Positions 3,422 through 53,044 of a stretch of DNA of 64,000 nucleotides are shown here, in pieces. This DNA is from a virus (lineage: Duplodnaviria; Caudoviricetes). Every line of letters begins with the position of its first letter. The stretch's first letter is position 1. The translations under genes were made by a program, and so were the position numbers. The stretch lies in the IMG/VR virus record IMGVR_UViG_3300014205_000206, positions 1-64,000 of that record; one strand, 5' to 3'. The notes beneath the pieces were generated by a model. That model made no database searches. It worked only from the letters and a program-made list of their open reading frames with translations, and had not been told where the DNA came from.

Positions 3422-3606
3422 TGATGCCACAACTCACCGTCAAGTTCCTTCCGGGAGACAAAATCCGAGTAGGAGACATCACTGGTCATGTCTCGTTGCT
3501 GTACGTTTCGTGGCCAAACAAGTGTAGGTACGAAATAACGTACTGGCACGAAGGGCGCAAAGTCGAAGTGATCTGCGACGAATACGAACTGAAAGGAGAA
3601 GCATGA
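3421..3606 (+). CDS. small hypothetical protein
   Basis: Fills the gap between rtcB and the prs-like gene with overlapping start/stop. Confidence 0.6.
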   Translation: MMPQLTVKFLPGDKIRVGDITGHVSLLYVSWPNKCRYEITYWHEGRKVEVICDEYELKGEA

Positions 3607-4472
3607 ATCCCATCATCGCGCACAAAGGCAAGATCATCGCACGGAACTTTATGACGCAGTACCCGTCCGGTGAACCGGCGTGGAAGCCGGGAATCGAAAT
3701 TCCGGAAGGCAGCGTCATTGGCTTCCAGTGGAACGGAAGTATCAACGACATCGTTGCTTTTTGCTCTTGGATGAGCACCGCAAGTCATACGCCGTTTGGA
3801 TGCACGGCGGTTATCCCGTTCCTGCCATGTTCGCGGCAGGACAAAGACGGGCCGGTTGAAGGCGATCAGTCCAGAGGGGCTGGGTTCATCCTTAACATGC
3901 TTCAGGAGTCGAACGTCGAAAAGGTTGTCTTGCTGGACAACCATTCGACGGCCATCTTGAAGTCTTACGGGAAGTTCATTGAGCACAGATCGCTAGCCAG
4001 CGTGTTGCTGCCTGATATGTTCGATCTTGTAGTCAGCCCTGATGCTGGAAGTCTAATCAGGGCGCACGAAGTAGCTGGATTGTACGGAGTTCCTGTTGTT
4101 TGCGCCTCCAAGACAAGGGAGCAGTCTTCAGGGAAGATAACTTCGTACAACCTGAATGCACTCCCGTCTGATGAACTACTGGAGATATTGGTAGTCGATG
4201 ACATTATTGATGGAGGGTACACGTTCAAGTTGCTCGGTGAGCGGCTAGAATCTATCTTTCCGAATGCTAACTTTACACTGACTTGTACGCATGGTGTGCT
4301 TAGTGGATATCCAAACATACCAGAATGCTTTAACTTGTATGACGAAGTGCTGATGACAAACAGTTGCTCGAACGCATCGCATATGGGTATGCGTTTTGGG
4401 TTTGGCGAAAGAGTAAGAATCATCGAAGTTGTTGAACGAATCACCATCGAAAGGAGCCTAGAGAATGCGTAA
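3603..4472 (+). CDS. prs: ribose-phosphate pyrophosphokinase-like protein (candidate Adps of NARP1)
   Basis: PFLPCSRQDK, LDNHS, VVSPDAG, VVDDIIDGGYT and THG motifs of the PRS fold. Confidence 0.88.
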   Translation: MNPIIAHKGKIIARNFMTQYPSGEPAWKPGIEIPEGSVIGFQWNGSINDIVAFCSWMSTASHTPFGCTAVIPFLPCSRQDKDGPVEGDQSRGAGFILNMLQESNVEKVVLLDNHSTAILKSYGKFIEHRSLASVLLPDMFDLVVSPDAGSLIRAHEVAGLYGVPVVCASKTREQSSGKITSYNLNALPSDELLEILVVDDIIDGGYTFKLLGERLESIFPNANFTLTCTHGVLSGYPNIPECFNLYDEVLMTNSCSNASHMGMRFGFGERVRIIEVVERITIERSLENA

Positions 4473-7215: not shown

Positions 7216-7290
7216 ACGGGTGTAGCTCAATGGCAGAGTTCTCGGTTTGGGACCGAGATGTTGGCGGTTCGAGTCCGTCCACCCGTACCA
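7216..7290 (+). tRNA. tRNA-Pro(UGG)
   Basis: Cloverleaf; CTCGG-TTTGGGA-CCGAG; encoded CCA. Confidence 0.92.
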
Positions 7291-7449
7291 ATTTTACATA
7301 GGGCCACCGGAAGTTCCTTTCAATGGGGGCTTGATGACTCCATCTCGAAGATAGCGAGCGGGTTGGCCGGTCAACCGAGTACGTTTATCGCTATCGCCAT
7401 ACGTCGAAGCTTTGCCGAGCTGGCGGAACGAGATCCGCGCAGTGTGTAT

Positions 7450-7524
7450 GTTGGCGGTAGCTCAATGGTAGAGCCCCGGTCTGTGAAGCCGGTTACGCGG
7501 GATCGATACCCGTCCGCCACCCCA
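7450..7524 (+). tRNA. tRNA-His(GUG)
   Basis: G-1:C73; loop CTGTGAA; T-loop ATCGATA; CCA. Confidence 0.88.
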
Positions 7525-7525
7525 T

Positions 7526-7602
7526 GCGCCTATCGTCTAGCGGTCTAGGATGCTGGCTTTTCAAGCCATGCGGCGCCGGTTCGAATCCGGCTAGGTGTAC
7601 CA
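7526..7602 (+). tRNA. tRNA-Glu(UUC)
   Basis: Loop TTTTCAA; GCCGG-TTCGAAT-CCGGC; CCA. Confidence 0.88.
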
Positions 7603-7609
7603 TCGAATT

Positions 7610-7684
7610 GCGCCCATCTTCTAGCGGTTAGGATACTGCCCTCTCAAGGCGGTGACGCGGGTTCGAATCCCGCTAGGTGCTCCA
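7610..7684 (+). tRNA. tRNA-Glu(CUC)
   Basis: Loop CTCTCAA; cloverleaf; CCA. Confidence 0.88.
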
Positions 7685-7692
7685 AATTGCAT

Positions 7693-7794
7693 AGGCGGCT
7701 TCGGGGTGTGATGGATGCGCTAACATCCAGACCGAAGCAACGGATGAGGCCGTGGGGGCCGTTTACCCCGTAGCCGACCTCTCCGAAGCCGCCT
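7693..7794 (+). ncRNA. unassigned structured RNA in the tRNA array
   Basis: 14-bp terminal stem AGGCGGCTTCGGGG/CTCCGAAGCCGCCT enclosing two hairpins. Confidence 0.55.
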
Positions 7795-7803
7795 TTGTGC
7801 TGT

Positions 7804-7946
7804 GCTTTTGGTGTTGTACGAATCGAACGATGAAGGCGAATCTCGTCTAGCGGCAGGACACCGGCCCGTATTGGGAGTGGTCGGAAACGCTGGTTCGAAT
7901 CCAGCCGTTCGTTTAGTAGCCGTTCGATTCGTAAAGCATCAAAAGC
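7804..7946 (+). ncRNA. tRNA-like RNA on an extended stem (YrlA/Y-RNA-like)
   Basis: D, anticodon-like and T arms (GCTGG-TTCGAAT-CCAGC) with no CCA, enclosed by 12-bp and 13-bp helices. Confidence 0.65.
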
Positions 7947-7949
7947 TTT

Positions 7950-8026
7950 GTGGGGATAGCTCAGTCTGGTAGAGCTGCATGTTGAAGCCATGCGAGTCGG
8001 TGGTTCGAATCCATCTTCCCACACCA
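7950..8026 (+). tRNA. tRNA-Phe(GAA)
   Basis: GCATG-TTGAAGC-CATGC; CCA. Confidence 0.88.
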
Positions 8027-8033
8027 AACTTAC

Positions 8034-8109
8034 GCGAAAATAGCTCAACTGGTAGAGCGCCGTCCTTCCAAGTCGGGGGTTGGGGGTTCGACTCCCCTTT
8101 TTCGCTCCA
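8034..8109 (+). tRNA. tRNA-Gly(UCC)
   Basis: Loop CTTCCAA; U73; CCA. Confidence 0.9.
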
Positions 8110-8115
8110 AATTTC

Positions 8116-8189
8116 GAGTCGCAAAGCTAAGGCAGCGGTCCGGCCTCCAAAGCTGTGACGACAAGGTTCAATTCCTTGGCGGCTCGCCA
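8116..8189 (+). tRNA. tRNA-Trp(CCA)
   Basis: Loop CTCCAAA; G73; CCA; divergent D-arm. Confidence 0.8.
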
Positions 8190-8196
8190 TGATTTT

Positions 8197-8270
8197 CGCT
8201 GGTTGGTGTAAAGGTAACACGACAGCCTCATAAGCTGTAGTAGAGGGATCGATACCCTCACCAGCAACCA
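8197..8270 (+). tRNA. tRNA-Met(CAU), initiator-like
   Basis: C1/A72 mismatch; ACAGC-CTCATAA-GCTGT; CCA. Confidence 0.85.
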
Positions 8271-8276
8271 ATCTAT

Positions 8277-8353
8277 TCAGGTATAGCTCAACTGGTCAGA
8301 GCGCGCGGCTGATAACCGTGAGATTGGTGGTTCAAATCCATCTACCTGAACCA
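8277..8353 (+). tRNA. tRNA-Ile(GAU)
   Basis: Loop CTGATAA; CCA. Confidence 0.92.
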
Positions 8354-8359
8354 AACTTC

Positions 8360-8435
8360 GGAAATGTAGCTCAGTCGGTAGAGCTCTCGCCTCTTAAGCG
8401 ATAGGTCGGTGGTTCGAACCCACCCATTTCCACCA
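8360..8435 (+). tRNA. tRNA-Lys(CUU)
   Basis: Loop CTCTTAA; CCA. Confidence 0.92.
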
Positions 8436-8441
8436 AACTTC

Positions 8442-8514
8442 GGGCGATACGCTAAGAGAGCGAGATTCCTTTGCAAGGAATTTGCAGCCGGTTTGATTCC
8501 GGCATCGTCCACCA
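8442..8514 (+). tRNA. tRNA-Ala(UGC), reduced D-arm
   Basis: G3:U70 and A73 (Ala identity); ATTCC-TTTGCAA-GGAAT; T-loop TTTGATT; CCA. Confidence 0.75.
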
Positions 8515-8576
8515 TCATTTCGTCCCGGTTGATGTGAAACCGGAGGGCTCAATCAAGGTTGAGCCGCTTTGCATTC

Positions 8577-8651
8577 GTGGAGTTAACTCAGCGGTAGAGT
8601 GTCTGCCCTACAAGCAGGTCGTCGGCGGTTCGATCCCGTCACTCCACACCA
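8577..8651 (+). tRNA. tRNA-Val(UAC)
   Basis: Loop CCTACAA; CCA. Confidence 0.92.
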
Positions 8652-8656
8652 ACTAT

Positions 8657-8733
8657 GGGTCCGTAGCTCAGTCTGGTAGAGCACTTGCTTGTCAAGCAAG
8701 CCGTCGTGGGTTCAAATCCCATCGGTCCCGCCA
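8657..8733 (+). tRNA. tRNA-Asp(GUC)
   Basis: CTTGC-TTGTCAA-GCAAG; G73; CCA. Confidence 0.92.
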
Positions 8734-8739
8734 AACTTT

Positions 8740-8814
8740 TCAGGTGTAGCTCAATGGCAGAGCTGCGGACTTTTAATCCGCTGGTTGGGGGTTCAAGTCC
8801 CTCCGCCTGAACCA
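8740..8814 (+). tRNA. tRNA-Lys(UUU)
   Basis: GCGGA-CTTTTAA-TCCGC; CCA. Confidence 0.92.
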
Positions 8815-8820
8815 AACTTT

Positions 8821-8895
8821 TCACGGGTAGCTCAATGGTAGAGCGCTCGACTGTTAATCGAGTGGTTGCAGGTTCAATCCCTGCCCTGTGAGCCA
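8821..8895 (+). tRNA. tRNA-Asn(GUU)
   Basis: CTCGA-CTGTTAA-TCGAG; G73; CCA. Confidence 0.92.
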
Positions 8896-8900
8896 AATCT

Positions 8901-9018
8901 GCTAGTCCCGCAATCGAGCTTCATCTGCTAGTCGGTCTTCGGCCAAGGGCGCGTTCCGGAGCGTGTCGCCTCGGCGGGATTGACGCAATAGCAGGTGCAG
9001 CTTGATGGCTGGATTAGC
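8901..9018 (+). ncRNA. unassigned rod-shaped structured RNA
   Basis: Four stacked helices capped by three short hairpins. Confidence 0.55.
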
Positions 9019-9029
9019 GTAAAACTTTT

Positions 9030-9106
9030 GTTCGCCTCGCCTAATGGACATGGCACTTGGCTACGAACCAAGACAAATGTAGGTTCGAATCCTACGGCGA
9101 ACACCA
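9030..9106 (+). tRNA. tRNA-Arg(ACG)
   Basis: CTTGG-CTACGAA-CCAAG; CCA. Confidence 0.92.
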
Positions 9107-9111
9107 AACTT

Positions 9112-9188
9112 GCCGAAATAGCTCAGATGGCCAGAGCGGCTGCCTTGTAAGCAGCGGGTCTTCGGTTCGAATCCGAATTTCGGCCCCA
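9112..9188 (+). tRNA. tRNA-Thr(UGU)
   Basis: GCTGC-CTTGTAA-GCAGC; CCA. Confidence 0.9.
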
Positions 9189-9194
9189 CACTTC

Positions 9195-9271
9195 GTTGAT
9201 GTAGCTCAACCGGACAGAGCGGCGATCTCCTAAGTCGCAGGTTGACGGTTCGATTCCGTCCATCAACTCCA
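9195..9271 (+). tRNA. tRNA-Arg(CCU)
   Basis: GCGAT-CTCCTAA-GTCGC; CCA. Confidence 0.9.
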
Positions 9272-9347
9272 TGGCGCGTAGCTCAGTGGTCAGAGCTTCG
9301 GCCTTATAAGCCGACTGTCGGTGGTTCAATTCCACCCGCGCCGACCA
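9272..9347 (+). tRNA. tRNA-Ile(UAU)
   Basis: TCGGC-CTTATAA-GCCGA; A73; CCA. Confidence 0.88.
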
Positions 9348-9353
9348 CACCTT

Positions 9354-9430
9354 GTCGCTGTAGCTCAACTGGACAGAGCGGCGGGTTTCTACCCCGTCTG
9401 TTGCGGGTTCAAGTCCTGCCAGCGACACCA
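9354..9430 (+). tRNA. tRNA-Arg(UCU)
   Basis: GCGGG-TTTCTAC-CCCGT; CCA. Confidence 0.9.
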
Positions 9431-9446
9431 ACCACAGGAGAACGAA

Positions 9447-9635
9447 ATGAAACTAGTTCACAAGCAGTTCGGAACAAGTTTTCTCAACATCGACCTGTAT
9501 CGAACTCCAAGAAACTGGGGAATCAACTTCACCGTTTTTTGGGACAAAAGGTATGGGTACCATATCTTCATACAAATGGCTTGTTTTGAGTTAGTTTATT
9601 GGTGGGCATGGGAAGACGAGCCGCACGGAAATTAG
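9447..9635 (+). CDS. small hypothetical, aromatic-rich protein (MKLVHKQF...)
   Basis: AGGAG RBS then ATG 9447; lies between the two tRNA blocks. Confidence 0.6.
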   Translation: MKLVHKQFGTSFLNIDLYRTPRNWGINFTVFWDKRYGYHIFIQMACFELVYWWAWEDEPHGN

Positions 9636-9638
9636 CTG

Positions 9639-9667
9639 TTGACAAACCGTGCATCGAAAGGTAGATT
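9639..9667 (+). promoter_or_regulatory. sigma70 promoter for the second tRNA block
   Basis: TTGACA-17 nt-TAGATT. Confidence 0.8.
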
Positions 9668-9673
9668 ACGACT

Positions 9674-9745
9674 GTGAACACGCCGCGCACCAGCCAACTG
9701 AGCCAGTGCTTGCTCTCGTCATCCTATAGGGGTGACTCGCGCTAG
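9674..9745 (+). CDS. putative attenuator leader peptide MNTPRTSQLSQCLLSSSYRGDSR
   Basis: GTG at the predicted TSS (leaderless); 12-codon run limited to Gln/Leu/Ser/Cys/Tyr; overlaps alternative hairpins. Confidence 0.7.
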   Translation: MNTPRTSQLSQCLLSSSYRGDSR

Positions 9746-9769
9746 CTCTAGCATCATCGAGCAACGACG

Positions 9770-9807
9770 AGCCCCTCCGCTAGCGATAGTCGAGGGGCTT
9801 TTGATTT
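9770..9807 (+). terminator. intrinsic terminator of the attenuator (3:4 helix)
   Basis: AGCCCCTC...GAGGGGCT followed by TTTGATTT. Confidence 0.8.
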
Positions 9808-9809
9808 AC

Positions 9810-9897
9810 TGGGGATTGGCAGAGGGGCCAATTGCACTCGACTCTGAATCGAGATCGGGCAACCGATACGAAGGTTCGAATCCTTCATCCCCGGCCA
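9810..9897 (+). tRNA. tRNA-Gln(CUG) with long variable arm
   Basis: CTCGA-CTCTGAA-TCGAG; variable arm ATCGG-GCAA-CCGAT; G73; CCA. Confidence 0.85.
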
Positions 9898-9989
9898 TTT
9901 GATTACTGGTGGCTCCCTTAATGGTCAAGGCCGACCTTGAGCATCAGTAGCGCCAGATACAGGGGGCGAATTGGCGCTGTAGGTTTTGT

Positions 9990-10077
9990 TGGGAGTTGGC
10001 AGAGCGGTCGATTGCGGGGGACTTTGAATCCCCACCGGGCAACCGGCGCGAAGGTTCGAATCCTTCACTCCCGGCCA
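9990..10077 (+). tRNA. tRNA-Gln(UUG) with long variable arm
   Basis: GGGGA-CTTTGAA-TCCCC; variable arm CCGG-GCAA-CCGG; G73; CCA. Confidence 0.85.
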
Positions 10078-10093
10078 TCTATCAGGAGACGCG

Positions 10094-10474
10094 ATGGGAC
10101 ACAATGCTGAATCAAGGAAAAGAGCGGAGGAGAAGCGACGAGCGTTACGGGACGAATGGATCGCGAACTCCGGCGGGTGCCGCGTGTGTGGGACGTACAA
10201 TAAAATCCACCTACACCACAAAGATCCCAATCAAAAAGTCAGTCACAGCATATGGACTTGGGGTAAAGAAAAAAGGGAAGCAGAGATAGCAAAGTGCATA
10301 CCGATGTGCGAAGAACATCATCACGGTCTCCATCGACCGAGAAAAGCGCACGGTACAAGTTGGAGCTATCAACTTGGATGCAGGTGCGAAGAATGCAGAC
10401 GAGCGGTAAATGAAGTTCAGCGTAGATACAGAACGAAGAAATGGGGAACAACTTCCTCTAAACCAAGAAAGTGA
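10094..10474 (+). CDS. HNH endonuclease-like zinc-binding protein
   Basis: CRVC...HLHHKDP...KCIPMCEEHH plus C-terminal HGT...GCRCEEC. Confidence 0.8.
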   Translation: MGHNAESRKRAEEKRRALRDEWIANSGGCRVCGTYNKIHLHHKDPNQKVSHSIWTWGKEKREAEIAKCIPMCEEHHHGLHRPRKAHGTSWSYQLGCRCEECRRAVNEVQRRYRTKKWGTTSSKPRK

Positions 10475-10479
10475 GTTTC

Positions 10480-10565
10480 GACGGATTGGCAGAGAGGCCG
10501 ATTGCATCTGACTGTAGATCAGATCCGTAAAAAGCGCGGTGGTTCGAATCCATCATCCGTCACCA
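10480..10565 (+). tRNA. tRNA-Tyr(GUA)
   Basis: TCTGA-CTGTAGA-TCAGA; long variable loop; CCA. Confidence 0.92.
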
Positions 10566-10587
10566 TAGTTCTTTGACATGACTTAAT

Positions 10588-10662
10588 GTGCGACTGGCCG
10601 AATGGTAAGGCGTCGGATTGCAAACCCGACTTTCGAAGGTTCGATTCCTTCGTCGCACTCCA
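10588..10662 (+). tRNA. tRNA-Cys(GCA)
   Basis: Loop TTGCAAA; U73; CCA. Confidence 0.88.
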
Positions 10663-10667
10663 GATTT

Positions 10668-10756
10668 GGAAGAGTAATTCATGTGGCCATGAACCTAGTC
10701 CTGAAAACTAGTGGTCGTGAAATACCGATGGGGATCGATACCTCACTCTTCCGCCA
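10668..10756 (+). tRNA. tRNA-Ser(UGA)
   Basis: CTAGT-CCTGAAA-ACTAG; long variable arm; G73; CCA. Confidence 0.88.
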
Positions 10757-10761
10757 TATTT

Positions 10762-10839
10762 GCCCGTGTAGCCCAATTGGCAGGAGGCGACTGCCTTAGA
10801 AGCAGTACAGTGCTGGTTCGAATCCAGTCACGGGTACCA
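10762..10839 (+). tRNA. tRNA-Leu(UAG) with short variable loop
   Basis: ACTGC-CTTAGAA-GCAGT; variable region only ACAGT; A73; CCA. Confidence 0.85.
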
Positions 10840-10844
10840 TCTTC

Positions 10845-10921
10845 CCCCTCGTAGCCCAACGGCAGGAGGCGACGCACTCAAAATGCGTACAGTGCTAGTT
10901 CGAATCTAGCCGGGGGGACCA
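10845..10921 (+). tRNA. tRNA-Leu(CAA) with short variable loop
   Basis: ACGCA-CTCAAAA-TGCGT; variable region only ACAGT; A73; CCA. Confidence 0.85.
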
Positions 10922-10928
10922 ACTTTAT

Positions 10929-11019
10929 GGAAGGGCCGACATTCGGTGCGTCAAGCCGGTTGCTAACCGGTGCGGCGGCGAAAGCTGCCGTGAGTGTTCG
11001 AGTCACTCCCCTTCCGCCA
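10929..11019 (+). tRNA. tRNA-Ser(GCU)
   Basis: GCCGG-TTGCTAA-CCGGT; long variable arm; G73; CCA. Confidence 0.88.
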
Positions 11020-39317: not shown

Positions 39318-40442
39318 CTATGCTGCGTGGATGAGTACGTTGTCTCGGATAGCCGACGCCACAGCATGCATCATCAGCGGCGGTACGGCGTTTCCGAGGC
39401 GAGTCCAGCGCTCCGCGAATGTCCCGGTCATCTTGAAGTCGTCTGGGAACGAGCAAATACGCTTTACTTCGAGAATCGTGAACCTTCTTGGCTCGTATGG
39501 ATGAGCAATACCATGCATTGTGGTGCATCCATGAGCTGCGTTGATGGTCGGGCAAGGGAACCGTTCGTCTACTCGCGTGCAGTTGAAGTTGATCGGGTGG
39601 TTGCTGCCAATCGGGCATTCGCGCCATGCGATCTTGCCGCTAACGCCCAATTCCATCTCCGCATGCTCGATTGGGTCTTCGCAGATAGGATGCTGTGTAT
39701 CAATTCTTCGCTCTCCGTCTTTTCTTCCAATCCACGGGCATGCGTCGGAAACTGAGTAATACCAGTCGTTTGGCGTCGGGTAACGGTTTATCTTGCCAAC
39801 CTTCTGTATCACTTTTTTGGCAATGTCATTTCGAATTCCAACAAAAATGACCCGTTGACGAGCTTGTGGAACACCCAACCACCTCGAATCGATGACAGCC
39901 GCTTGGGTGTCGTATCCAGCTTCCTTCATCCAAGCCAGAACCATCTTGAAGTAGCCTTTTGCGGCCCCTTTGATGAGTCCTGTGACGTTTTCGGCTACGA
40001 ACGTTTTCGGCTGGAGTTCTTTGATGAGCCGGATGTACTCTTCAAATAGGTCATCTGACCTTTGGTTAGTCCCGTCACCGTGCGCGAAGGTTTTACCCCA
40101 ACCTTTTTCGCGTAGTCCCGTACTTGAAAACGATTGACAAGGAGGACTACCATCAAACAGGTCCAATTCACCGTGCTTGATGCCAGTTGCTTCAAGGACG
40201 CTAGTCCCTTTGACAGTGCGGATGTCTCGGCCATCGGCAACGCACCCCTCTTGACAGTTCATTTTATAGGTTTTCAGGGCAGTTGGTTCAAATTCGTTTG
40301 CCCACCTAACATTGAACCCCGCAAGCCTATAGCCAGTGCAGGAACCGCCAGCGCCGGAAAACGTAGATGCAACGTTGAAACCCGTTGAACCTTCGTGCTC
40401 CAAAACGTCTTTCATCAAGAGAGGTACGTACTTTGGCTTCAC
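39318..40442 (-). CDS. C5-cytosine DNA methyltransferase
   Basis: FSGAGG (motif I), GSPPCQSF (IV), ENV (VI), QARQRV (VIII) and GNAVPP (X). Confidence 0.95.
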   Translation of the reverse strand: MKPKYVPLLMKDVLEHEGSTGFNVASTFSGAGGSCTGYRLAGFNVRWANEFEPTALKTYKMNCQEGCVADGRDIRTVKGTSVLEATGIKHGELDLFDGSPPCQSFSSTGLREKGWGKTFAHGDGTNQRSDDLFEEYIRLIKELQPKTFVAENVTGLIKGAAKGYFKMVLAWMKEAGYDTQAAVIDSRWLGVPQARQRVIFVGIRNDIAKKVIQKVGKINRYPTPNDWYYSVSDACPWIGRKDGERRIDTQHPICEDPIEHAEMELGVSGKIAWRECPIGSNHPINFNCTRVDERFPCPTINAAHGCTTMHGIAHPYEPRRFTILEVKRICSFPDDFKMTGTFAERWTRLGNAVPPLMMHAVASAIRDNVLIHAA

Positions 40443-40966
40443 GACTGATTGGCCTTTCCTGACCACTGGAAGCCACACTTGGGGCATTCAAAGTCGGTCT
40501 TGATGCTTTCATCGACCGTTCCAAACTCCGCTGGCGGCTCAGGAGGCTCGATGGAGTCTACCAGGCGCTCGAATTCCTTGTCGGTCCATCCAACCAACTC
40601 TACACCGTCTGCTTGCAGCTGCGCCAAAAGCTCATTGAGCGCATGGGCATCCCAGGCGGACAGGTCGCTAGTCCTGTTGTCCGCGATAGCGAAAGCAATC
40701 GCGTCGTTGCCCGTCAACTCGGTCCTAACAATGTCAATGTACTCCCAACCGAGCTTGCGAGCTGCTTCTAGGGCACCGTTTCCGGCGATGACAACGTCAT
40801 CCTTACCAACGACAATCGGCTTTTGCTGCCCGAATCGCTCTAGCGATTGGCAAATAGCAGCGAGGTTTCGTTCCGGATGGATACGTGCGTTTTTGGGGTC
40901 GTACTTCAGCGAATCCACATGGACTCGCTCGACAATCAAGGCTGTTTTGGATGTTTGTTCTGTCAC
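40439..40966 (-). CDS. ParB/sulfiredoxin N-terminal domain protein
   Basis: LKYDPKNARIH...FGQQKPIVV...IAGNG...IADNRTSDLS...FECPKCG. Confidence 0.9.
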   Translation of the reverse strand: MTEQTSKTALIVERVHVDSLKYDPKNARIHPERNLAAICQSLERFGQQKPIVVGKDDVVIAGNGALEAARKLGWEYIDIVRTELTGNDAIAFAIADNRTSDLSAWDAHALNELLAQLQADGVELVGWTDKEFERLVDSIEPPEPPAEFGTVDESIKTDFECPKCGFQWSGKANQS

Positions 40967-41676
40967 TTTACCTCCTCGTCGTTGGGTTCTAGGGCTTCCG
41001 AAAGCATGTCGAAGTAATACTCAGAATACTTACTAACAGTGGCGGATTCTATCGCTTTTACAACGCTGATCGGAACAACTCCTTTTGCCGCATTCCCAAG
41101 CGGCTTGATCGCGATGGCGAACTCATGCGGGTGCATGTTCGCATTTTTCGCGCTTGCAAGAATGTTGTCATATGCCTCTTTAACCTTAGCCAAGGACGTT
41201 ACTGGACCAATGATTTTTCCAGGTTTGGTCTTTGTGTCGAAAATGCCAATGTTGGGGTATTTAAGCGAATCTTTCAACTTCAACATCGGCATCGGCTGGA
41301 ATGATTTCTCAGCCGTATCTTTTTTTGTTTGATCCGTGGCCAAACCATCTGGAACGTCAGAATCCCCGCGCCTAACTACCATTCCATCAGCAACCAATTT
41401 ACCGTCTTTTCTTGTCGGCATCCACTTCCCTGCGACGGACTTCTTTTTTGGCATATCCCCCCATCCTTCCGCAACTTCATCGAAGGACACAGTTTTTATT
41501 TTAACACCGCTAAATGGGACGTAATCTAGTGCATTTACCCAATTCTCCATCATCTTCTTTTTCAGTTCGTCTTGTTCAAAAGCCCAATAAAACTTGTTAG
41601 CACCAGGATTTGGGGTTGGGCTGTAGATCGGTGTCGCGAAAATCGAGCTTGTAAGTTTTTTGGTGTCGTCATCCAT
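40963..41676 (-). CDS. hypothetical protein, first gene of the late operon
   Basis: Long ORF with GGGAGG RBS; overlaps the ParB-N start. Confidence 0.6.
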   Translation of the reverse strand: MDDDTKKLTSSIFATPIYSPTPNPGANKFYWAFEQDELKKKMMENWVNALDYVPFSGVKIKTVSFDEVAEGWGDMPKKKSVAGKWMPTRKDGKLVADGMVVRRGDSDVPDGLATDQTKKDTAEKSFQPMPMLKLKDSLKYPNIGIFDTKTKPGKIIGPVTSLAKVKEAYDNILASAKNANMHPHEFAIAIKPLGNAAKGVVPISVVKAIESATVSKYSEYYFDMLSEALEPNDEEVK

Positions 41677-41801
41677 GGCATTCCTCCCCTTGTACGCCAC
41701 CCATTATATCTAGTAAATTGCCGAATGCAACATGTTTTTTCAATAGAAGGCATGGCTATAAACAGCCTATTTTCAACGGTTTATCCAAACTAAAATAAAT
41801 G

Positions 41802-45970: not shown

Positions 45971-46501
45971 ATGGAAAGCGTAATCGGAAACTGGTTTCTC
46001 ACCTACACCGGAAAGAAAGTAGACCCTTTTCGGATGACAGCGGACGATGTGTGCATCGAGGATATCGCCCACTCATTGTCCCAAATATGCCGTTTCAACG
46101 GCCACTGCTGCGCGTTTTACAGCGTAGCGCAGCATAGTATCTACGTTGCATCCATCCTGCCGCCCGAGTTGAAATTCGTCGGATTGATGCACGATGCCAC
46201 GGAGGCTTACTGTGGCGACATGATCCGACCCATCAAAGTGTCCATGCCTACCTACAAAAGTCTTGAATACGTCATCTGGCTAGCTATCGCGCAAAAGTAT
46301 GACCTGCCAACCGAGCTTCCCAAGGAAGTCAAAGCCGCAGATAACTCCATGCTGATGACCGAGCGCCGCGACCTGCTCAAGTGGACACCCGATGACTGGA
46401 ACGTTCCGGAGCAACCGCAGGATTTTTTCGTCTACCCGAAACCGTCAAGGCAAGCAGAAGCCAACTTCTTGTCGTTCTTCCATAGGTTGCACAAGCCATG
46501 A
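45971..46501 (+). CDS. HD-domain phosphohydrolase (YfdR/YfbR-like)
   Basis: EDIAHSLSQICRFNGH...YSVAQHS...LMHDATEAYCGD. Confidence 0.9.
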   Translation: MESVIGNWFLTYTGKKVDPFRMTADDVCIEDIAHSLSQICRFNGHCCAFYSVAQHSIYVASILPPELKFVGLMHDATEAYCGDMIRPIKVSMPTYKSLEYVIWLAIAQKYDLPTELPKEVKAADNSMLMTERRDLLKWTPDDWNVPEQPQDFFVYPKPSRQAEANFLSFFHRLHKP

Positions 46502-46974
46502 TCTCCGAATTCCAAGGTAAGTACCGATGGTTGTCTAATTTCTGGACGCTCAAAGTCCCTGTTGAATTCAATGGGGCCAAGTTCTACACGGTGGAGGTGG
46601 CTTACCAATCGGCGAAATGCTTACAGATAGAAGATTTCCGATGGATACAGCAGCTATCTCCCGGACAAGCAAAGCGCTACGCCAGAACCATGGTAGTGCG
46701 CGACGACTGGAACGATAGCCGAAAGCTTGAAGTCATGCGAATCCTTGTCTGCCAGAAGTTCTACAAAAACCGCGAGCTAGCTGAGTTGCTCGTTGAAACT
46801 GGCGATCAAAAGCTAGTAGAAGGAAATACTTGGGGAGACCGATTTTGGGGTGTCTGCAACGGCGCAGGGGAAAATAACCTCGGCAAAATCCTGATGGAAG
46901 CGCGCTATTCACTGATTGAAGACCTTAACCGTGAGTGTGGCAACTTCGCTTTCGCTGACTATGGTGACGAATGA
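46498..46974 (+). CDS. NADAR family protein
   Basis: WLSNFW...EVAYQSAK...KFYKN...LVEGNTWGDRFWG...GENNLGKILMEAR. Confidence 0.92.
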   Translation: MISEFQGKYRWLSNFWTLKVPVEFNGAKFYTVEVAYQSAKCLQIEDFRWIQQLSPGQAKRYARTMVVRDDWNDSRKLEVMRILVCQKFYKNRELAELLVETGDQKLVEGNTWGDRFWGVCNGAGENNLGKILMEARYSLIEDLNRECGNFAFADYGDE

Positions 46975-47341
46975 CAGACTACCTAAAGAAATTCGGCCTT
47001 TTCATTCTCAAGGCAGCGCTCAAGGCGACCATACTAACACTGCTGTTCAACCTAGTTAATTTGATGTTCGAAACGCCGAGTTACCATCTATTCACAGCCT
47101 GGGTCGCATCGTTTGCGACACTTGTAGCCCACAACAAGGAGCGACCATGAGCAATGACCGATTCACCCTAGCTGCCATCGACAACCTTCTTGAAAACGGA
47201 GCGAAATTCCATTTCGAAGACCCCGTCGTGCAAAAAGAAGACGGAATGGTCGTCGTCAAAGACAAAGGGAAAATCATGCTGCTTATGTCCGAAACGGCGT
47301 GGCAAAAGCTGATTATGGTCCGACGCGATGGCAAAGAATGA
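46971..47341 (+). CDS. two small genes: membrane peptide 46971-47150 and hypothetical 47147-47341
   Basis: Consecutive ATGA overlaps; first ORF (59 aa, hydrophobic) is below the track cutoff. Confidence 0.55.
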
Positions 47342-47697
47342 AAGTCATCGTCTGCGGCAGTCGCCACATCTCTCCATGGCTGTGGGTGCAAACCGTGAAG
47401 CACGAGCTGGTGAAGATGAAGGCGACAGAGGTGGTTTCCGGTGCCCAGCGGGGCGGCGATCAGGCTGGTGAAATGGCTGCGAAGCATCTCGGACTCCCGG
47501 TCAAGCTGTTCCCCGCCGATTGGGACAAATACGGCTATGCCGCCGGTCCCATCCGCAATAAGCAAATGGCGCTCTACGCCGATGCCTGCATCGCTCTACC
47601 AGGAGGAGTTGGAACCAATGGTATGGTGCGACTAGCCAAGGAGCACGGGCTCATCGTTGTTGAATTCGCGAAACTACCTACAGCGGACATCATTTGA
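47338..47697 (+). CDS. YspA/SLOG family protein
   Basis: VIVCGSR...VVSGAQRGGD...PADWDKYGYAAGPIRNKQM...GGVGTNGM. Confidence 0.9.
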   Translation: MKVIVCGSRHISPWLWVQTVKHELVKMKATEVVSGAQRGGDQAGEMAAKHLGLPVKLFPADWDKYGYAAGPIRNKQMALYADACIALPGGVGTNGMVRLAKEHGLIVVEFAKLPTADII

Positions 47698-48145: not shown

Positions 48146-48468
48146 CCAACGAAAGAACCGTACCGAACAGTCCACATCACTACCACACCTACGTGCTCGC
48201 ATTCGATGAGTTCCGAAACATGTGGCGCTTGAGCGCCAACGGAGTCATCGTGCCGCTCAACATCCTGTCGCAAGATCACGAAGAACGCTACGTGAAGCTC
48301 GGGCAAATCCGAGGCAAGGAAGCCCGCGAGCTGGCGATCCATGTGGCGCGTACTATGCTAGAGCACACCTACCAGAGCTTCGATCAGGCATCCAAACTAG
48401 TTGTGCTAGACGAAAACGGAGAAGTCAACTATACTTTCATTGTGCCGACAACTGCGGAACAATACTAA
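48142..48468 (+). CDS. hypothetical protein
   Basis: ATGA overlap; 108 aa. Confidence 0.6.
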   Translation: MTNERTVPNSPHHYHTYVLAFDEFRNMWRLSANGVIVPLNILSQDHEERYVKLGQIRGKEARELAIHVARTMLEHTYQSFDQASKLVVLDENGEVNYTFIVPTTAEQY

Positions 48469-48506
48469 GGTCATTTGGCTTTCCAGTTTTACGGAGAAAT
48501 CGACTC

Positions 48507-49082
48507 TTGACCGGCGTTTACGCGATCCTGAACAAAAAAACGGGCCAGCAATATATTGGCTCAGCCGTGAGCATTAAACGACGATGGCACGCTCACAAAT
48601 GCACGCTCCGCAAGGGCAAACATAAGAACCGCCAGCTTCAAGCTGCTTGGAATCTGGACGGCGAGGCTGCGTTCGAATTCAGGATCATCACGCTTTGTAG
48701 CAAGTGGGAAGCGCTGGTGTGGGAGCAGCAAGCCATGGAGACACAGGACTGCTCCTACAACATCGCTCCTACTGCCGGGACCACGGCTGGGGTGTCCCTA
48801 ACTACCGAGACTATCGCCAAGATGAAGGCTGCAAAGGCTAACGTCAGCGATGTCACACGGGAGCGAATCAGTCAGTCGATGATGGGGCACGTTACTAGTG
48901 AAGAAACCAAGCGCAAGATTAGCCAAGCTACCAAGGGTCGGAAACTGAGCCCAGAGCAAGTTGCCAAGCGACGCGGGAAGAAAGCTTCTATTGCAACTCG
49001 CGAGAAAATACGTCAAGCTCGGCACAAGACGTATCTAACCAAAAACAGACTGTTCGTATCACCTACCAAGGAGAGCACATGA
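48507..49082 (+). CDS. GIY-YIG homing endonuclease with NUMOD3 repeats
   Basis: GVYAILN...YIGSA...RRWHAH; TTG start after GGAGA. Confidence 0.88.
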   Translation: MTGVYAILNKKTGQQYIGSAVSIKRRWHAHKCTLRKGKHKNRQLQAAWNLDGEAAFEFRIITLCSKWEALVWEQQAMETQDCSYNIAPTAGTTAGVSLTTETIAKMKAAKANVSDVTRERISQSMMGHVTSEETKRKISQATKGRKLSPEQVAKRRGKKASIATREKIRQARHKTYLTKNRLFVSPTKEST

Positions 49083-49474
49083 CCACGAAGCGGAATCTAA
49101 GCGACGAAGCACGCAAGCGCATGGGCGATGCCCGCAGGGGCAAAACGTTGTCGGCGGAAACAAAGCAGAAGATTAGCGAGGCTATGAAGGGCCATCCAGT
49201 GAGCGAGGAAACAAAGCTCAAAATCAGCGTCGGGAACACCGGCAAGATCGTAACCGAGGAAACCCGGCTCAAGATGTCGTTGGCGCTTGCTGGCAAAAAG
49301 CGGACCCCCATGAGCGAGGAGACGAAGGCAAGGATCAAGGAAACAAAGGCTGCTGCGGCAAAGCTCAAGGAGGCTTCGAAGGGGGATGCCACACAGGCAG
49401 AGCCAAGCAAGACTACGGAAGCTGCCGCTGACGCGATCATCGAGAAGCTGAAGGCTGAGGTAATGGGCGAGTAA
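49079..49474 (+). CDS. stand-alone NUMOD3-repeat protein
   Basis: Repeated SEETK/RxKMS units without a nuclease domain. Confidence 0.75.
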   Translation: MTTKRNLSDEARKRMGDARRGKTLSAETKQKISEAMKGHPVSEETKLKISVGNTGKIVTEETRLKMSLALAGKKRTPMSEETKARIKETKAAAAKLKEASKGDATQAEPSKTTEAAADAIIEKLKAEVMGE

Positions 49475-49737
49475 GTAAGGTTGCAGGGTGGGAGAGAACG
49501 GGGTTGGGCACTCCCACAGTACAAAGCTCAAACTTGGTCGCCGCACGGGAGAGTGGGACCCCCTGCCGGGTCACACCCGAAAAAAATCATCGGTCCCCAC
49601 CCCCACCTCCGGGGGGATAGTTAGCATAATGGTGCGCGTTTTAGCGCCTAATGTGGCGTCAACTAGTGTAAATACCGCGACGCTAACTATATAACCGAAT
49701 GGTTATGCAACCTGGTGCATGGCATTGTAAATAGTTG

Positions 49738-49766
49738 TTGACATACCGGCGGCACCGTTCTAATAT
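49738..49766 (+). promoter_or_regulatory. sigma70 early promoter
   Basis: TTGACA-17 nt-TAATAT. Confidence 0.8.
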
Positions 49767-49818
49767 CTACATGTCGGACGGAACGAACCGCCCGCCATGC
49801 CGCATAGGATTCTAGACC

Positions 49819-50433
49819 ATGACCGCCACCCGCACCGCCCGCCGCACCGCCACCCCGCCCGCCGCCGATATCACCGTTCCGCCCGCCGCCGATATCACCG
49901 TTCCGCCCGCCGTTCCGCCCGTGTGCGACGTGTGCGCGCGGTACGCTAGCATTGCGGGAAACGTCACCCGCGACGGACACGTCTACGTCAACCGCGCGAC
50001 CGTTCCGGAATGCAACGCCGACGTCGCGCGCGATCGCATCGCGAACGATACCGCGCGCGCCGCGCGTAACGTCGCGACGTCGGACCACGATCGCGCGGCC
50101 GCGAACGTCGCCGTGAAACGGACCGGTGACCGCGTATGGCGCACGCGCAACCCGCACGGTTTGGGCGGCACGGTCACCGCGACCCGCGCGACCCGGACCG
50201 CGCCCACCGTCACCGCGCCACCCGCGTACTATGCCGCGTGTGTCGCGACGGCGAACCGTTTCACGGCGGCGGGAATGGCGACGACGCCGGAACACGTCGC
50301 GGCCGAAATCGCCGCACACGTTGACGCGTTCATCGCGGGAATCAACGTTGACGCGGTCTACATGGACGCGTTCAACGCGAAAATTGCCGCGACGTTGGAC
50401 GCGATCGCGACGTTGACGAACGCGACCGCGTAA
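49819..50433 (+). CDS. Ala/Thr/Arg-rich hypothetical protein, first gene of the early region
   Basis: AGGA RBS; 204 aa; 24-bp duplication (PPAADITV x2); downstream hairpin. Confidence 0.7.
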   Translation: MTATRTARRTATPPAADITVPPAADITVPPAVPPVCDVCARYASIAGNVTRDGHVYVNRATVPECNADVARDRIANDTARAARNVATSDHDRAAANVAVKRTGDRVWRTRNPHGLGGTVTATRATRTAPTVTAPPAYYAACVATANRFTAAGMATTPEHVAAEIAAHVDAFIAGINVDAVYMDAFNAKIAATLDAIATLTNATA

Positions 50434-50441
50434 CACAATCG

Positions 50442-50470
50442 GACGCGGGCCGCGCGTTGCGGCCCGCGTC
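50442..50470 (+). terminator. 12-bp hairpin, probable terminator or stabiliser
   Basis: GACGCGGGCCGC-GCGTT-GCGGCCCGCGTC; weak U tail. Confidence 0.55.
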
Positions 50471-50505
50471 TATTCCACCCCACCCCTACTAGAACGGAGA
50501 ACACA

Positions 50506-50700
50506 ATGCGGCCCGACATGACGATGCAGAAAGCGGAAGCCCTAGTTGCCAAAGCGGTGAGCGAAGTAGAGGCGGATGAGGCGTTTGCCCGATACGATGG
50601 GTTCGACGTTCGCGAATGGCGTATCGCGCGGCGTGAACGCGCCCGGCATGAACGCGCCATGATCGAAACCGCGGACGGGATCGCGTTCCGCATGTCGTGA
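50506..50700 (+). CDS. small hypothetical protein
   Basis: GGAGA RBS. Confidence 0.65.
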   Translation: MRPDMTMQKAEALVAKAVSEVEADEAFARYDGFDVREWRIARRERARHERAMIETADGIAFRMS

Positions 50701-50712
50701 TCGGGTAGTAGT

Positions 50713-50742
50713 GCATCCCACGATCCGGTGATCGTGGGATGC
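50713..50742. repeat. 13-bp perfect inverted repeat
   Basis: GCATCCCACGATC-CGGT-GATCGTGGGATGC. Confidence 0.85.
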
Positions 50743-50792
50743 GACGTTACCCGAAGCGATAGCAAGTAAACCGCAGAGCAAAGGAGCAGACC

Positions 50793-51199
50793 ATGAAAGC
50801 ACAGGCGTACGGAGTGAAGGCGGTCACGGTGGATGGCGCAAGGCGGCAAGAGCGGCTGGCCAGCATCAAGGCTGAGATCGCGGCGAGCCACAACGAAGTC
50901 ATCAAGGGGGAACAGTCCATCGCCTTCGCCAAGGCGGACCGCAGGGCGGCAGTAAAGCGCCTCGACAGGGCGCGCAAGGAACTCGGAGCGTTCGTCGAAG
51001 TGAACATGGACTGCATCGAGGTGAAGTGGTGACCGCCCAAGTCCAGCAGATGCTCGCGGAACACTTCTTCGGCGGCGCAGCGCTCGGATTCCTGCTCGGC
51101 GTCACGCTCGTGCTGGTCTGCGTGTTCAAGTACCGCGAGTGGGACGAGAAGCGATTCGAACAGAAGTGGCACGTTCGGCGGTACGGACGGCGAATCTAG
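50793..51199 (+). CDS. two small genes: coiled-coil 50793-51032 and membrane peptide 51029-51199
   Basis: AAGGAG RBS; GTGA overlap. Confidence 0.65.
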
Positions 51200-52294: not shown

Positions 52295-52323
52295 TTGACA
52301 CAAGCATGGTAGGTTGGTATTCT
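52295..52323 (+). promoter_or_regulatory. sigma70 early promoter
   Basis: TTGACA-17 nt-TATTCT. Confidence 0.8.
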
Positions 52324-52416
52324 ATGCATGTGGTGATTGATAAGTTGCTTTAGTTGGTCCGGTAGTACCGGACGCGGCAATCATGCCGCTTCCGCGAAGT
52401 CCGATAGGAGTAAGTA

Positions 52417-52998
52417 ATGTCCAAGAACAACCAGCAGCCGAAGCAGACCGCCGAAGTCGCCGCCACCGAGCAGACCGCTCCCGCCACCGAGCAGACCGCT
52501 CCCGCCACCGAGCAGACCGCTCCCGCCGCTCCGCGCCAGCCCATCGTGCTCGACATGGAGGCCATCGCGGCGCAGGAAGTCATCGTCGCGGATCTCACCG
52601 CCAAGCTCGAAGCGGCCAAGGCCGGCGGAAACGACCACGCCATCGCCGAAGCGAAGAAGATCCGCAAGGGCGCCACCGACAAGTTGTGGCGCTTGCAGAA
52701 CCCCGGCGGCAAGGGTGGCACGCGCTCGCCCAACTCGCCCAAGGCCGCGAGCAACCCCAACACGCTCCACATCGCGCTTCCCGAAGCGACCGTCACGGCG
52801 CTCGACGCGGCCGTCGCCAAGTTCGCCCCGGTCGGGCTCGACCGCTCCGCCGCTCTGAACATGGTCATCGAGAGCGCCACCGAGTCGATCCTCAAGTTCG
52901 ACTCCGTCGAGTCCTTCGCCACCGGGCTGAAGGCTCTGCTCGACGCCAAGATCGCGGCCATGGTCGCGCTCCAGAGCGACCTCCTCGCCTCCAAGTAG
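52417..52998 (+). CDS. hypothetical protein with ATEQTAP x3 repeat and C-terminal RHH-like motif
   Basis: 21-bp tandem repeat at 52461-52527; strong C/G-ending codon bias; LHIALPEATVTALDAAV...DRSAALNMVIE. Confidence 0.75.
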   Translation: MSKNNQQPKQTAEVAATEQTAPATEQTAPATEQTAPAAPRQPIVLDMEAIAAQEVIVADLTAKLEAAKAGGNDHAIAEAKKIRKGATDKLWRLQNPGGKGGTRSPNSPKAASNPNTLHIALPEATVTALDAAVAKFAPVGLDRSAALNMVIESATESILKFDSVESFATGLKALLDAKIAAMVALQSDLLASK

Positions 52999-53004
52999 TT
53001 CTCC

Positions 53005-53044
53005 AGCCCCGCAGCGGTCCCCAAGCCGCTGCGGGGCTTTTTTG
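53005..53044 (+). terminator. intrinsic terminator
   Basis: AGCCCCGCAGCGG...CCGCTGCGGGGCT-TTTTTG. Confidence 0.85.

Follow-up and report, generated by a model that had tools for sequence, protein, structure and literature searches.

A tailed-phage transcription unit held free of a three-letter word on both DNA strands

Why should one transcription unit of a phage be devoid, on both strands, of a three-letter word that occurs at normal density in the rest of the genome? The question is raised by IMGVR_UViG_3300014205_000206, a record of 84,058 bp from an uncultured tailed phage (Caudoviricetes) that is a linear fragment and 84% complete; the window analyzed here is its first 64,000 nt. VAG denotes AAG, CAG or GAG, and CTB denotes the reverse-complement word CTT, CTG or CTC.

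Extent and composition of the void

The + strand is free of VAG over 49552–50496, a 946-bp gap where the next-longest in the record is 176 bp, and free of CTB over 49713–50855, a gap of 1144 bp against a next-longest of 211 bp. The original prediction had placed these two gaps at 49554–50496 and 49715–50855, in agreement within 2 nt. For each of the six trinucleotides (AAG, CAG, GAG, CTT, CTG and CTC), the longest gap genome-wide lies here, and when all 3-letter IUPAC words were scanned without bias, the VAG/CTB void came out as the top desert of the genome. Both words are missing from a core that runs from 25 bp upstream of promoter P1 to the ribosome-binding site (RBS) of gene 2. The locus comprises the following features.

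49552–49712, + strand: left extension, conserved non-coding DNA with 0 VAG on the + strand
49713–50496, both strands: two-strand core, 0 VAG and 0 CTB
49738–49766, + strand: promoter P1, sigma-70-type (TTGACA-17-TAATAT), with a -35 hexamer invariant among relatives
49803–49809, + strand: RBS of gene 1, (CA)TAGGA, TGGGA in relatives, a Shine-Dalgarno sequence spelt without VAG
49819–50433, + strand: gene 1, encoding a 204-aa basic protein
50441–50470, + strand: GC-rich hairpin 3' of gene 1, 12 pairs with a weak U-tract
50497–50578, + strand: VAG-rich patch, 9 sites at the same positions in all relatives, no CTB
50497–50855, + strand: right extension, no CTB on the + strand (equivalent to no VAG on the - strand), VAG abundant on the + strand
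50506–50700, + strand: gene 2, encoding a 64-aa protein, wholly CTB-free, with Leu as CTA or TTG
52416–52994: second cassette with a 193-aa gene-1 paralogue, promoter at 52295 and terminator at 53005–53038

The core contains no VAG/CTB site where ~82 are expected from the genome frequency. Mononucleotide shuffles of the core (20,000) gave a mean of 70.9 sites and a minimum of 39, and gene 1 recoded with the codon usage of the genome gave a mean of 40.6 VAG/CTB sites and a minimum of 23. Even permutation of gene 1's own synonymous codons (20,000) left 8.8 boundary sites, with a minimum of 2 against the 0 observed. Chance and composition are ruled out as causes of the void by these four nulls; a composition-matched null, which the original prediction had named as something that might account for the gap, does not explain it. 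Codon bias is likewise ruled out, since the ban crosses codon boundaries, promoter, RBS, terminator and antisense strand, upholding the earlier claim that promoter, gene and terminator are all covered. A mutational footprint of A-to-I or C-to-U editing was rejected because GG/CC is depleted and GC raised, the opposite of either.

Within the core, AG occurs five times and CT ten times, and each of these dinucleotides sits in TAG or CTA, as had been read from the sequence beforehand. TAG and CTA are present at their genome frequency; that they are untouched indicates a clean three-letter specificity. The core has a GC content of 67%, a CpG O/E of 1.82 and a density of 6-bp palindromes five times that of the genome. 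Genome-wide, AG and CT each have an O/E of 0.99, and VAG/CTB density is normal outside the gene-1 unit, so the shielding is restricted to this unit. We found no published description of such a void.

At the left edge, the extension holds 3 CTB where ~7.5 are expected, all three at positions kept in relatives. To the right, in 50497–50855, VAG returns with 23 sites and CTB remains at 0, which is the predicted return on one strand only, and this CTB-free stretch stops 63 nt inside gene 3. The VAG-rich patch spans the RBS (GGAGA) and the first 24 codons of gene 2, with nucleotide conservation of 0.90–0.97; the 3' two-thirds of gene 2 and the next hairpin (50578–50754, 176 bp) again contain no VAG/CTB on either strand. 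The hairpin after gene 1, retained in relatives with differing sequence, is probably a partial terminator. A structured RNA in the conserved upstream spacer was considered and rejected, with just 3 covarying pairs and no Rfam match. A model in which the void of each strand extends towards its own 5' side, tolerating at the edges of the unit just those sites that point away from it, fits the window but is not reproduced in the contig L017 described below.

Ala, Thr, Arg and Pro are abundant in the gene 1 product, Gln is absent, and Glu, Lys, Leu and Ser are scarce. The protein's conserved core is CxxC..DGHVY..ECNADV..KRTGDRVWRTRNPHGLGGTV. Its dN/dS of 0.19–0.44 marks gene 1 as a real protein gene. 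Family searches of PHROGs, Pfam, PADLOC and Atlas returned no match, and the AF2 model is poor (pLDDT 61), with no significant Foldseek/PDB match. A reading of CxxC..DGH..N..N as an HNH/His-Me finger was unsupported.

Relatives, a remote homologue and a paralogue

The original prediction had proposed looking at relatives, and the void proved to be present in 11 of 11 related metagenomic contigs from many samples, with one exception site. Gene 1 dS among these contigs is 0.6–1.3. Compared with the relative L011, gene 1 (dS 0.98) has diverged more than its flanks, gene 2 (0.32) and gene 3 (0.14), and in L011 the void is longer along with gene 1. Six assemblies break within gene 1; the high divergence and these breaks fit an arms-race locus. 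A foreign origin of the GC-rich island is ruled out by the residence of the void in all relatives at dS ~1. A DNA search of phage collections, pattern and protein scans of IMG/VR, and metagenome scans gave no matches. The gene-1 unit, comprising P1, RBS, ORF and hairpin, is held VAG-free on both strands by ongoing purifying selection against single sites, so strong that the RBS is respelt and the amino-acid composition of the gene 1 product reshaped.

A remote homologue of gene 1 (43% identity, E = 2e-12) was found on another phage contig, L017, where it is syntenic with a homologue of gene 2. It sits in a different two-strand void, that of AGB/VCT. Within-gene permutation (20,000) gave 8.3 expected sites and a minimum of 1, against 0 observed; the unequal strand extents seen in the gene-1 lineage are not reproduced in L017. 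In P0010, which has an AGB void, the CxxC/DGH part is absent and the void is present all the same.

The paralogue of the second cassette, 2 kb downstream of gene 1, has no TA across exactly its ORF, a void that we tentatively regard as real (within-gene permutation, p = 0.018). The paralogous cassette holds 40 VAG and 28 CTB (68), and the gene-1 unit holds 23 TA. Different members of the gene-1 family would face readers with different words: VAG here, AGB in L017 and possibly TA for the paralogue.

Candidate readers of the word

Reverse complementation leaves the banned set unchanged, and the ban extends to untranslated DNA; this indicates that the putative reader works on DNA rather than on codons or a single RNA. 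The reading that fits best is the first of the two offered in the original prediction, namely that an AG-containing defence motif is avoided until an antidote is made. We tentatively propose, as a plausible rather than a probable account, that a self-contained early gene is kept clear of the recognition word of an enzyme that nicks or modifies DNA, and that this enzyme is probably the one countered by the gene's product. Such a reader would damage or block DNA at VAG in either orientation, as might a frequent-cutting nickase or a base-modifying toxin, and would most likely belong to host defence. Gene 1 would then be "armoured", an immediate-early gene whose transcription must remain possible as long as the enzyme is active. 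Its fast-evolving product would probably neutralize the enzyme, upon which the rest of the genome, with its normal VAG density, would be repaired or spared.

Supporting this proposal, the two-strand core is one promoter-to-next-RBS unit. The phage also carries other counter-defence genes, encoding NADAR, a SLOG protein, NAMPT, RtcB and a CCA-adding enzyme, and 26 tRNAs. Because gene 1 has no recognizable fold or family, its antidote role is something that we purely infer. A host enzyme reading 3 bp would need to spare host DNA, by massive methylation, infection-only activation or single-strand specificity. Counting against the proposal, it must also explain how the rest of the genome survives before the antidote acts, and the unequal strand extents of this lineage do not recur in L017. 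Going further, it is possible, if somewhat unlikely, that the immediate-early family with the motif D-x-[LV]-W-R-x-x-N-P-x-G-x-G-G-T consists of antidotes to DNA-targeting immune enzymes reading 2–3 bases, each gene purged of the word of its enemy.

Readers of this kind have a precedent in Nt.CviQII (R^AG), a virus-encoded strand-specific nickase; the only characterized readers of degenerate strand-specific 3-letter words are the chlorovirus enzymes Nt.CviQII/M.CviQII and Nt.CviPII (^CCD) (PMC3017599). The likeness to Nt.CviQII is in the type of word, AG-core, degenerate, strand-specific and three letters long (VAG here, AGB in L017), and not in the enzyme. In contrast to our phage, Nt.CviQII and Nt.CviPII are encoded by algal viruses, whose protection comes from genome-wide methylation; moreover, the word here includes CAG, and no N6-adenine methylase was found in the 84%-complete record. 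DarT/NADAR/DarG systems are similar in that infection activates them and that they damage single-stranded DNA reversibly at short words; a NADAR gene (PF08719, 46498–46974, E = 1e-22) is present in the phage. The words known for DarT toxins are TNTC (DarT2) or TTTW. E. coli DarT1, a guanine ADP-ribosylating toxin reversed by NADAR, shows no consensus motif (PMC11543638), a point against the proposal.

A rather unlikely alternative is that the gene-1 family proteins are themselves the readers, acting as small basic sequence-specific DNA binders, nickers or modifiers in host takeover, with each gene lacking the word of its own product and thereby escaping shut-off of its expression. Banned words do differ from one family protein to the next (gene 1, VAG; P0010, AGB; possibly TA in the case of the paralogue), and the void is the gene's own transcription unit. 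The family proteins are basic, and the predicted model of gene 1 suggests a CxxC and a beta-beta-alpha element; yet gene 1 matches no nuclease or DNA-binding family or fold, and P0010 has the void without the CxxC/DGH part. Each cassette is, moreover, full of the other's word; if destructive and expressed together, the paralogues would attack one another as well as the entire phage genome.

It is doubtful that position rather than gene identity determines the void, such that ~1.3 kb enters first, is alone exposed and so lacks the word, as in the first-step transfer of T5 or the leading end of T7. T5 first-step-transfer DNA lacks EcoRI sites. Four consensus sigma-70 promoters (49738, 51444, 52295 and 53285) lie in a cluster that begins with the gene-1 unit, P1 being the first, and conserved hairpin-rich non-coding DNA borders the unit. 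However, the record is a linear fragment beyond whose end a Logan contig continues, and none of the relatives' contigs stops at a set position around 49.5 kb. No end repeats were found in the record. A physical terminus at a shared assembly end was considered and rejected; two assemblies stop at the same base and a third contig continues, pointing to an assembly break. Nor is the length of the void fixed: it grows with the gene in L011, and in L017 a void accompanies the gene family in another phage. Across T5 positions 1–50,000, a range that takes in the 10.2-kb terminal repeat, the highest score of any 3-letter void is 24, compared with 82 here. The resemblance to T5 and T7 (gene 0.3/ocr) lies in first-expressed lytic genes free of nuclease sites present elsewhere and in early products that disarm the host. 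The sites missing in T5 and T7 are 6-bp sites of known enzymes and follow an entry-order logic, whereas in the present phage one gene unit lacks a degenerate 3-letter word completely, on either strand, and its protein is reshaped.

The second reading in the original prediction, in which VAG/CTB is covalently marked across the phage genome and the gene-1 unit must enter the cell as plain DNA, is improbable. Global short-motif modification of phage DNA is known from CmoX (5-carboxymethyl-C at GC), dPreQ0 (at GA) and Mom. The phage resembles such systems in encoding, beside a ParB_N protein, a C5 cytosine methyltransferase close to CmoX enzymes (E = 8e-59); a PPDK-like/phosphatase pair lies downstream, and the record is just 84% complete. 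CmoX modifies phage DNA globally at a 2-letter motif, and its ParB_N gene context has been described (PMC12783734). The phage methyltransferase aligns with DGSPPCQSF to the SPPC catalytic motif of 8YF3, but it has GNAVPP (Asn) where SpCmoX has GRMVPP, with Arg350, which binds the carboxymethyl group of Cx-SAM (PMC12783734). CmoX-type carboxymethylation is ruled out by the missing Arg350, and the sole DNA methyltransferase found is, judged by its motifs, an ordinary C5 enzyme; TGT/DpdA, N6_N4 and D12 methylases were not found in the 84%-complete record. Nor are sites holding VAG/CTB exempt from palindrome avoidance: the O/E is 0.12 for CTGCAG, 0.13 for CTCGAG, 0.14 for CAGCTG and 0.35 for GAGCTC, and pooled palindromes have an O/E of 0.41 with the word versus 0.63 without it. 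The word does not look shielded, because palindromes containing it are avoided at least as strongly as others. There is no genome-wide CT/AG footprint. The palindromes, the ordinary C5 enzyme and the paralogous early cassette of the same genome, full of VAG/CTB, together disfavor genome-wide modification.

CRISPR PAM avoidance is very improbable. On this account a type I system, for instance I-E with its AAG/GAG-like PAMs, would use VAG as its PAM set, which would make the unit impossible to target or to sample for spacers; the unit might then be an anti-CRISPR operon. PAMs are 2–3 nt long, read on duplex DNA in either orientation and system-specific. Cas3 degrades towards the PAM-proximal side; VAG to the right of the unit and CTB to its left would point Cas3 inward, and exactly those sites are present, nor does shielding 1 kb from CRISPR save the genome. 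Published PAM depletion in phages is genome-wide and partial (PMC12174588), unlike the normal genome-wide VAG/CTB frequency here. As in PAM depletion and in ACA-poor genes facing MazF, the word of 2–3 letters lost under selection is one that an immune effector recognizes; depletion there is incomplete and spread over the genome, or affects a single RNA strand, whereas the present void is total, local and two-stranded.

Avoidance in single-stranded nucleic acid, by exclusion of sites for an mRNA endonuclease at VAG or of primase starts (template 5'-CTB-3', primer pppAG...), is very improbable: MazF-type RNases and DnaG/T7-type primases do typically recognize three letters on one strand, and the discriminating letter stands at the primase's cryptic nucleotide position, but an RNA reader fails to explain the ban on the complementary word or on DNA upstream of the promoter, excluding primers over 1 kb has no known benefit, and there is no sign of antisense transcription.

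Implications for phage defence biology

To our knowledge, phages have so far been seen to avoid motifs only in part and genome-wide, the motifs being 4–8 bp sites or PAMs. In the present case one promoter-to-terminator unit has lost a 3-letter word entirely from both strands, at a cost to protein composition; the void is held through saturating synonymous divergence, and a different word is banned once the gene family enters another phage. The AGB/VCT void of the remote homologue and, tentatively, the TA-free ORF of the paralogue are newly seen in this work. The void implies a class of DNA-acting agents with 2–3 bp specificity that are active in the first minutes of infection, and we know of no agent of that kind and specificity described for bacteria. 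Such agents could be sought through the banned word and the protein family, with the help of a simple genetic test. If the gene-1 family does consist of antidotes, the specificity of a defence enzyme would be readable directly from phage genomes, and one phage may carry several differently armoured paralogues.

Extent and anatomy of the VAG/CTB void

The predicted two-strand desert of about 1 kb was confirmed in the linear 84,058-bp record (84% complete by CheckV; the window is its first 64 kb). Along the + strand, [ACG]AG (VAG) does not occur between 49552 and 50496; this gap of 946 bp compares with 176 bp for the next-longest in the record. CT[CGT] (CTB, the reverse complement of VAG) is missing between 49713 and 50855, leaving 1144 bp where the runner-up measures 211 bp. 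For each of the six trinucleotides, the longest genome-wide gap falls in the desert, whose edges are sharp (immediately outside, the densities are ~11 and ~9 per 200 bp). When all IUPAC 3-letter words were scanned over the whole genome with both strands counted, CTB/VAG was the top-ranked void (785 bp, where 81.8 sites would be expected), and the best unrelated one scored 36.6.

Chance is excluded by four nulls. Composition does not explain the gap, as mononucleotide shuffles of the core retained a mean of 70.9 sites (minimum 39). Gene 1 recoded by genome codon usage carried a mean of 40.6 sites (minimum 23), and permuting its own synonymous codons gave 8.8 codon-boundary sites (minimum 2 in 20,000; observed 0). 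The view that codon bias is not responsible therefore holds, the more so as untranslated DNA is also covered. TAG and CTA occur at normal genome frequency, which narrows the ban to precisely V-A-G.

The two-strand core corresponds in extent to one transcription unit, and promoter, ribosome-binding site (RBS), ORF and hairpin all lie within it, bearing out the claim that the gap spans promoter, gene and terminator.

Features of the desert
49552–49712: left extension, conserved and non-coding, VAG-free and with only three CTB, each at a conserved position
49713–50496: core, without VAG or CTB on either strand, beginning 25 bp upstream of the promoter
49738 (+): promoter TTGACA-17-TAATAT, the first of four of this type (49738, 51444, 52295, 53285)
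In the core: gene 1 RBS, TAGGA (TGGGA in relatives)
49819–50433 (+): gene 1, ORF of 204 aa
In the core: GC hairpin of 12 bp
Right end of the core: GGAGA of the next gene, gene 2
50497–50855: right extension, comprising gene 2 and 63 nt at the start of gene 3, with zero CTB and Leu codons CTA or TTG

To the right of the core the motif returns on one strand only, as originally described: CTB is still absent, and VAG reappears in two nucleotide-conserved patches, located where translation of genes 2 and 3 begins. The gene 2 RBS and first ~40 codons (50480–50630) are nearly invariant (nucleotide conservation 0.88–0.97) among relatives that differ by ~20% elsewhere, and all nine VAG sites keep the same positions; this stretch may hold an overlapping DNA or RNA element. 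Directly upstream of the desert, a GIY-YIG/NUMOD3 homing-endonuclease gene (48222–49474) is divided between two ORFs, of 191 and 131 aa, likewise in relatives.

Besides a 2230-aa tape-measure protein, portal and TerL, this siphovirus encodes two GIY-YIG endonucleases, a C5 cytosine methyltransferase, and UvrD-like and SNF2 helicases. Its tRNA genes number 26, with both isoacceptors for Lys, Glu and Gln among them; along with an RtcB ligase and a CCA-adding enzyme (7216–11019, 1889–3421 and, in record coordinates, 62771–64213), they look like a tRNA repair/replacement kit. NAMPT, a phosphoribosyltransferase, a YfbR-like 5'-deoxynucleotidase, NADAR and a YAcAr/SLOG protein form a set of NAD/ADP-ribose genes (3603–5934 and 45971–47697). 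At 84058, where an ENA contig stops at the same base as the record, a Logan contig continues with a T4_Y16D-family gene missing from the record, which is therefore truncated or variable there.

Conservation and composition of gene 1

Eleven loci from many samples, comprising gene 1 homologues (identities of 96%, 62%, 62%, 55% and ~52%) and contigs found via gene 2, cover the region. Void and layout are kept in all eleven, the sole exception being one AAG in L002. In L011 the gene encodes 258 aa and the void is longer to match (1124 and 1302 bp).

Sequence comparison shows gene 1 to be truly protein-coding (dN/dS 0.19–0.44). With dS at 0.57–1.28, synonymous sites have turned over, yet no VAG or CTB has been fixed. 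Under the ban the protein has taken on an altered composition: Gln is absent (0%), Glu (1.5% vs 6.3% in the proteome), Lys (1.0% vs 5.4%), Leu (1.5% vs 8.1%) and Ser (1.0% vs 7.1%) are depleted, and Ala and Thr make up 24.5% and 13.7%. By dS against L011 (0.98 for gene 1, 0.32 for gene 2, 0.14 for gene 3), gene 1 is older than its flanking genes, and six assembly breaks also fall within it; the two features together suggest a hypervariable locus. A 24-bp tandem duplication (49856–49903; PPAADITV twice) is absent from the 99.7% identical contig L001, and the N-terminal third of the protein is repeat-rich and variable in length across all relatives (196–258 aa).

Other banned words in the gene 1 family

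Among 1.84 billion representatives, a profile search recovered a single remote homologue, P0010 (profile E = 1e-8; BLASTP 2e-12, 43% identical over 105 aa), carried by a JGI contig of 1.2 kb from another phage (L017), where a gene 2 homologue comes next. The P0010 gene is rich in AAG, CAG and GAG and lies inside its own two-strand AGB/VCT void (AGB missing from 260–728, VCT from 221–725), a region with 20 occurrences of AGA. Within-gene permutation predicts 8.3 sites (minimum 1 in 20,000; observed 0), and the RBS, GGGAGAA, is permitted under this ban. The void travels with the gene family, and the word differs.

The third promoter cassette (52295–53038: promoter 52295, ORF 52417–52998, terminator 53005–53038) encodes a gene 1 paralogue (BLASTP 5e-16 to P0010, 4e-6 to gene 1); the family shares the motif D-x-[LV]-W-R-x-x-N-P-x-G-x-G-G-T. 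Zero TA occurs across exactly the paralogue ORF (GC 69%), a void kept in L002, L011 and L012; in L007 and L008 a Tyr codon is all that breaks it. Since permutation with a GC3 of 0.92 gives only p = 0.018, this TA ban is tentative. The gene 1 cassette is rich in TA, and the paralogue cassette in VAG/CTB.

Candidate readers of the banned word

In two independent cases the banned set equals its own reverse complement, and it extends over untranslated DNA; its reader therefore acts on DNA, and the purging of single sites suggests that one hit matters. The gene 1 unit is immediate-early and self-contained, with a fast-evolving product, and the word varies among family members. The most coherent account, which we advance tentatively, is an armoured early gene: an enzyme that nicks or modifies DNA would read the banned word, the gene 1 unit would have to stay transcribable while that enzyme is active, and the product would probably counter it. 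On this account, relatives of gene 1 in other phages, and perhaps its paralogue in this one, would face readers of other words. The chlorovirus nickase Nt.CviQII (R^AG), paired with M.CviQII, sets a published precedent for a reader of this type (PMC3017599). DarT-type toxins with NADAR erasers form a second candidate class, with no motif tying them to VAG. Full-text searches of the literature turned up no account of comparable local voids of short words.

That the family proteins are themselves the readers is possible but unlikely. A phage-made mark, the original prediction's alternative of phage-wide VAG/CTB modification, is improbable. Palindromes of 6 bp are strongly avoided in the genome (pooled O/E 0.63), and for those that include the word avoidance is no weaker (CTGCAG 0.12, CTCGAG 0.13, CAGCTG 0.14, GAGCTC 0.35; pooled O/E 0.41); were the word shielded, palindromes holding it would need no avoidance. 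No TGT/DpdA, N6_N4 or D12 methylase was found in the record (84% complete). The C5 methyltransferase (within 39318–41700, − strand) is a close homologue of CmoX (8YF3, E = 8e-59) with the ParB_N neighbour described for that family. CmoX needs Arg350, where the phage enzyme has Asn; a CmoX-type carboxymethyltransferase is thereby rejected, and the enzyme is an ordinary C5 methylase. After it come the ParB_N protein and an unassigned 245-aa ORF.

Such 6-bp palindromes are five times denser in the core than in the genome (44.6 vs 9.1 per kb), and the core holds three of the four CGATCG, both ACGCGT and two of the three GACGTC, so the word ban overrides ordinary site avoidance in the gene 1 unit. 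AGGCCT, CACGTG, CCTAGG, GGGCCC and TGATCA are absent from the whole record.

Position-based stealth is as improbable as a phage-made mark, as the void tracks a gene and not a position, and T5 shows no comparable void in its first 50 kb, first-step-transfer repeat included (top score 24); T5 is a conceptual analogue only. PAM avoidance is very unlikely, as is a ban on RNA or primase words.
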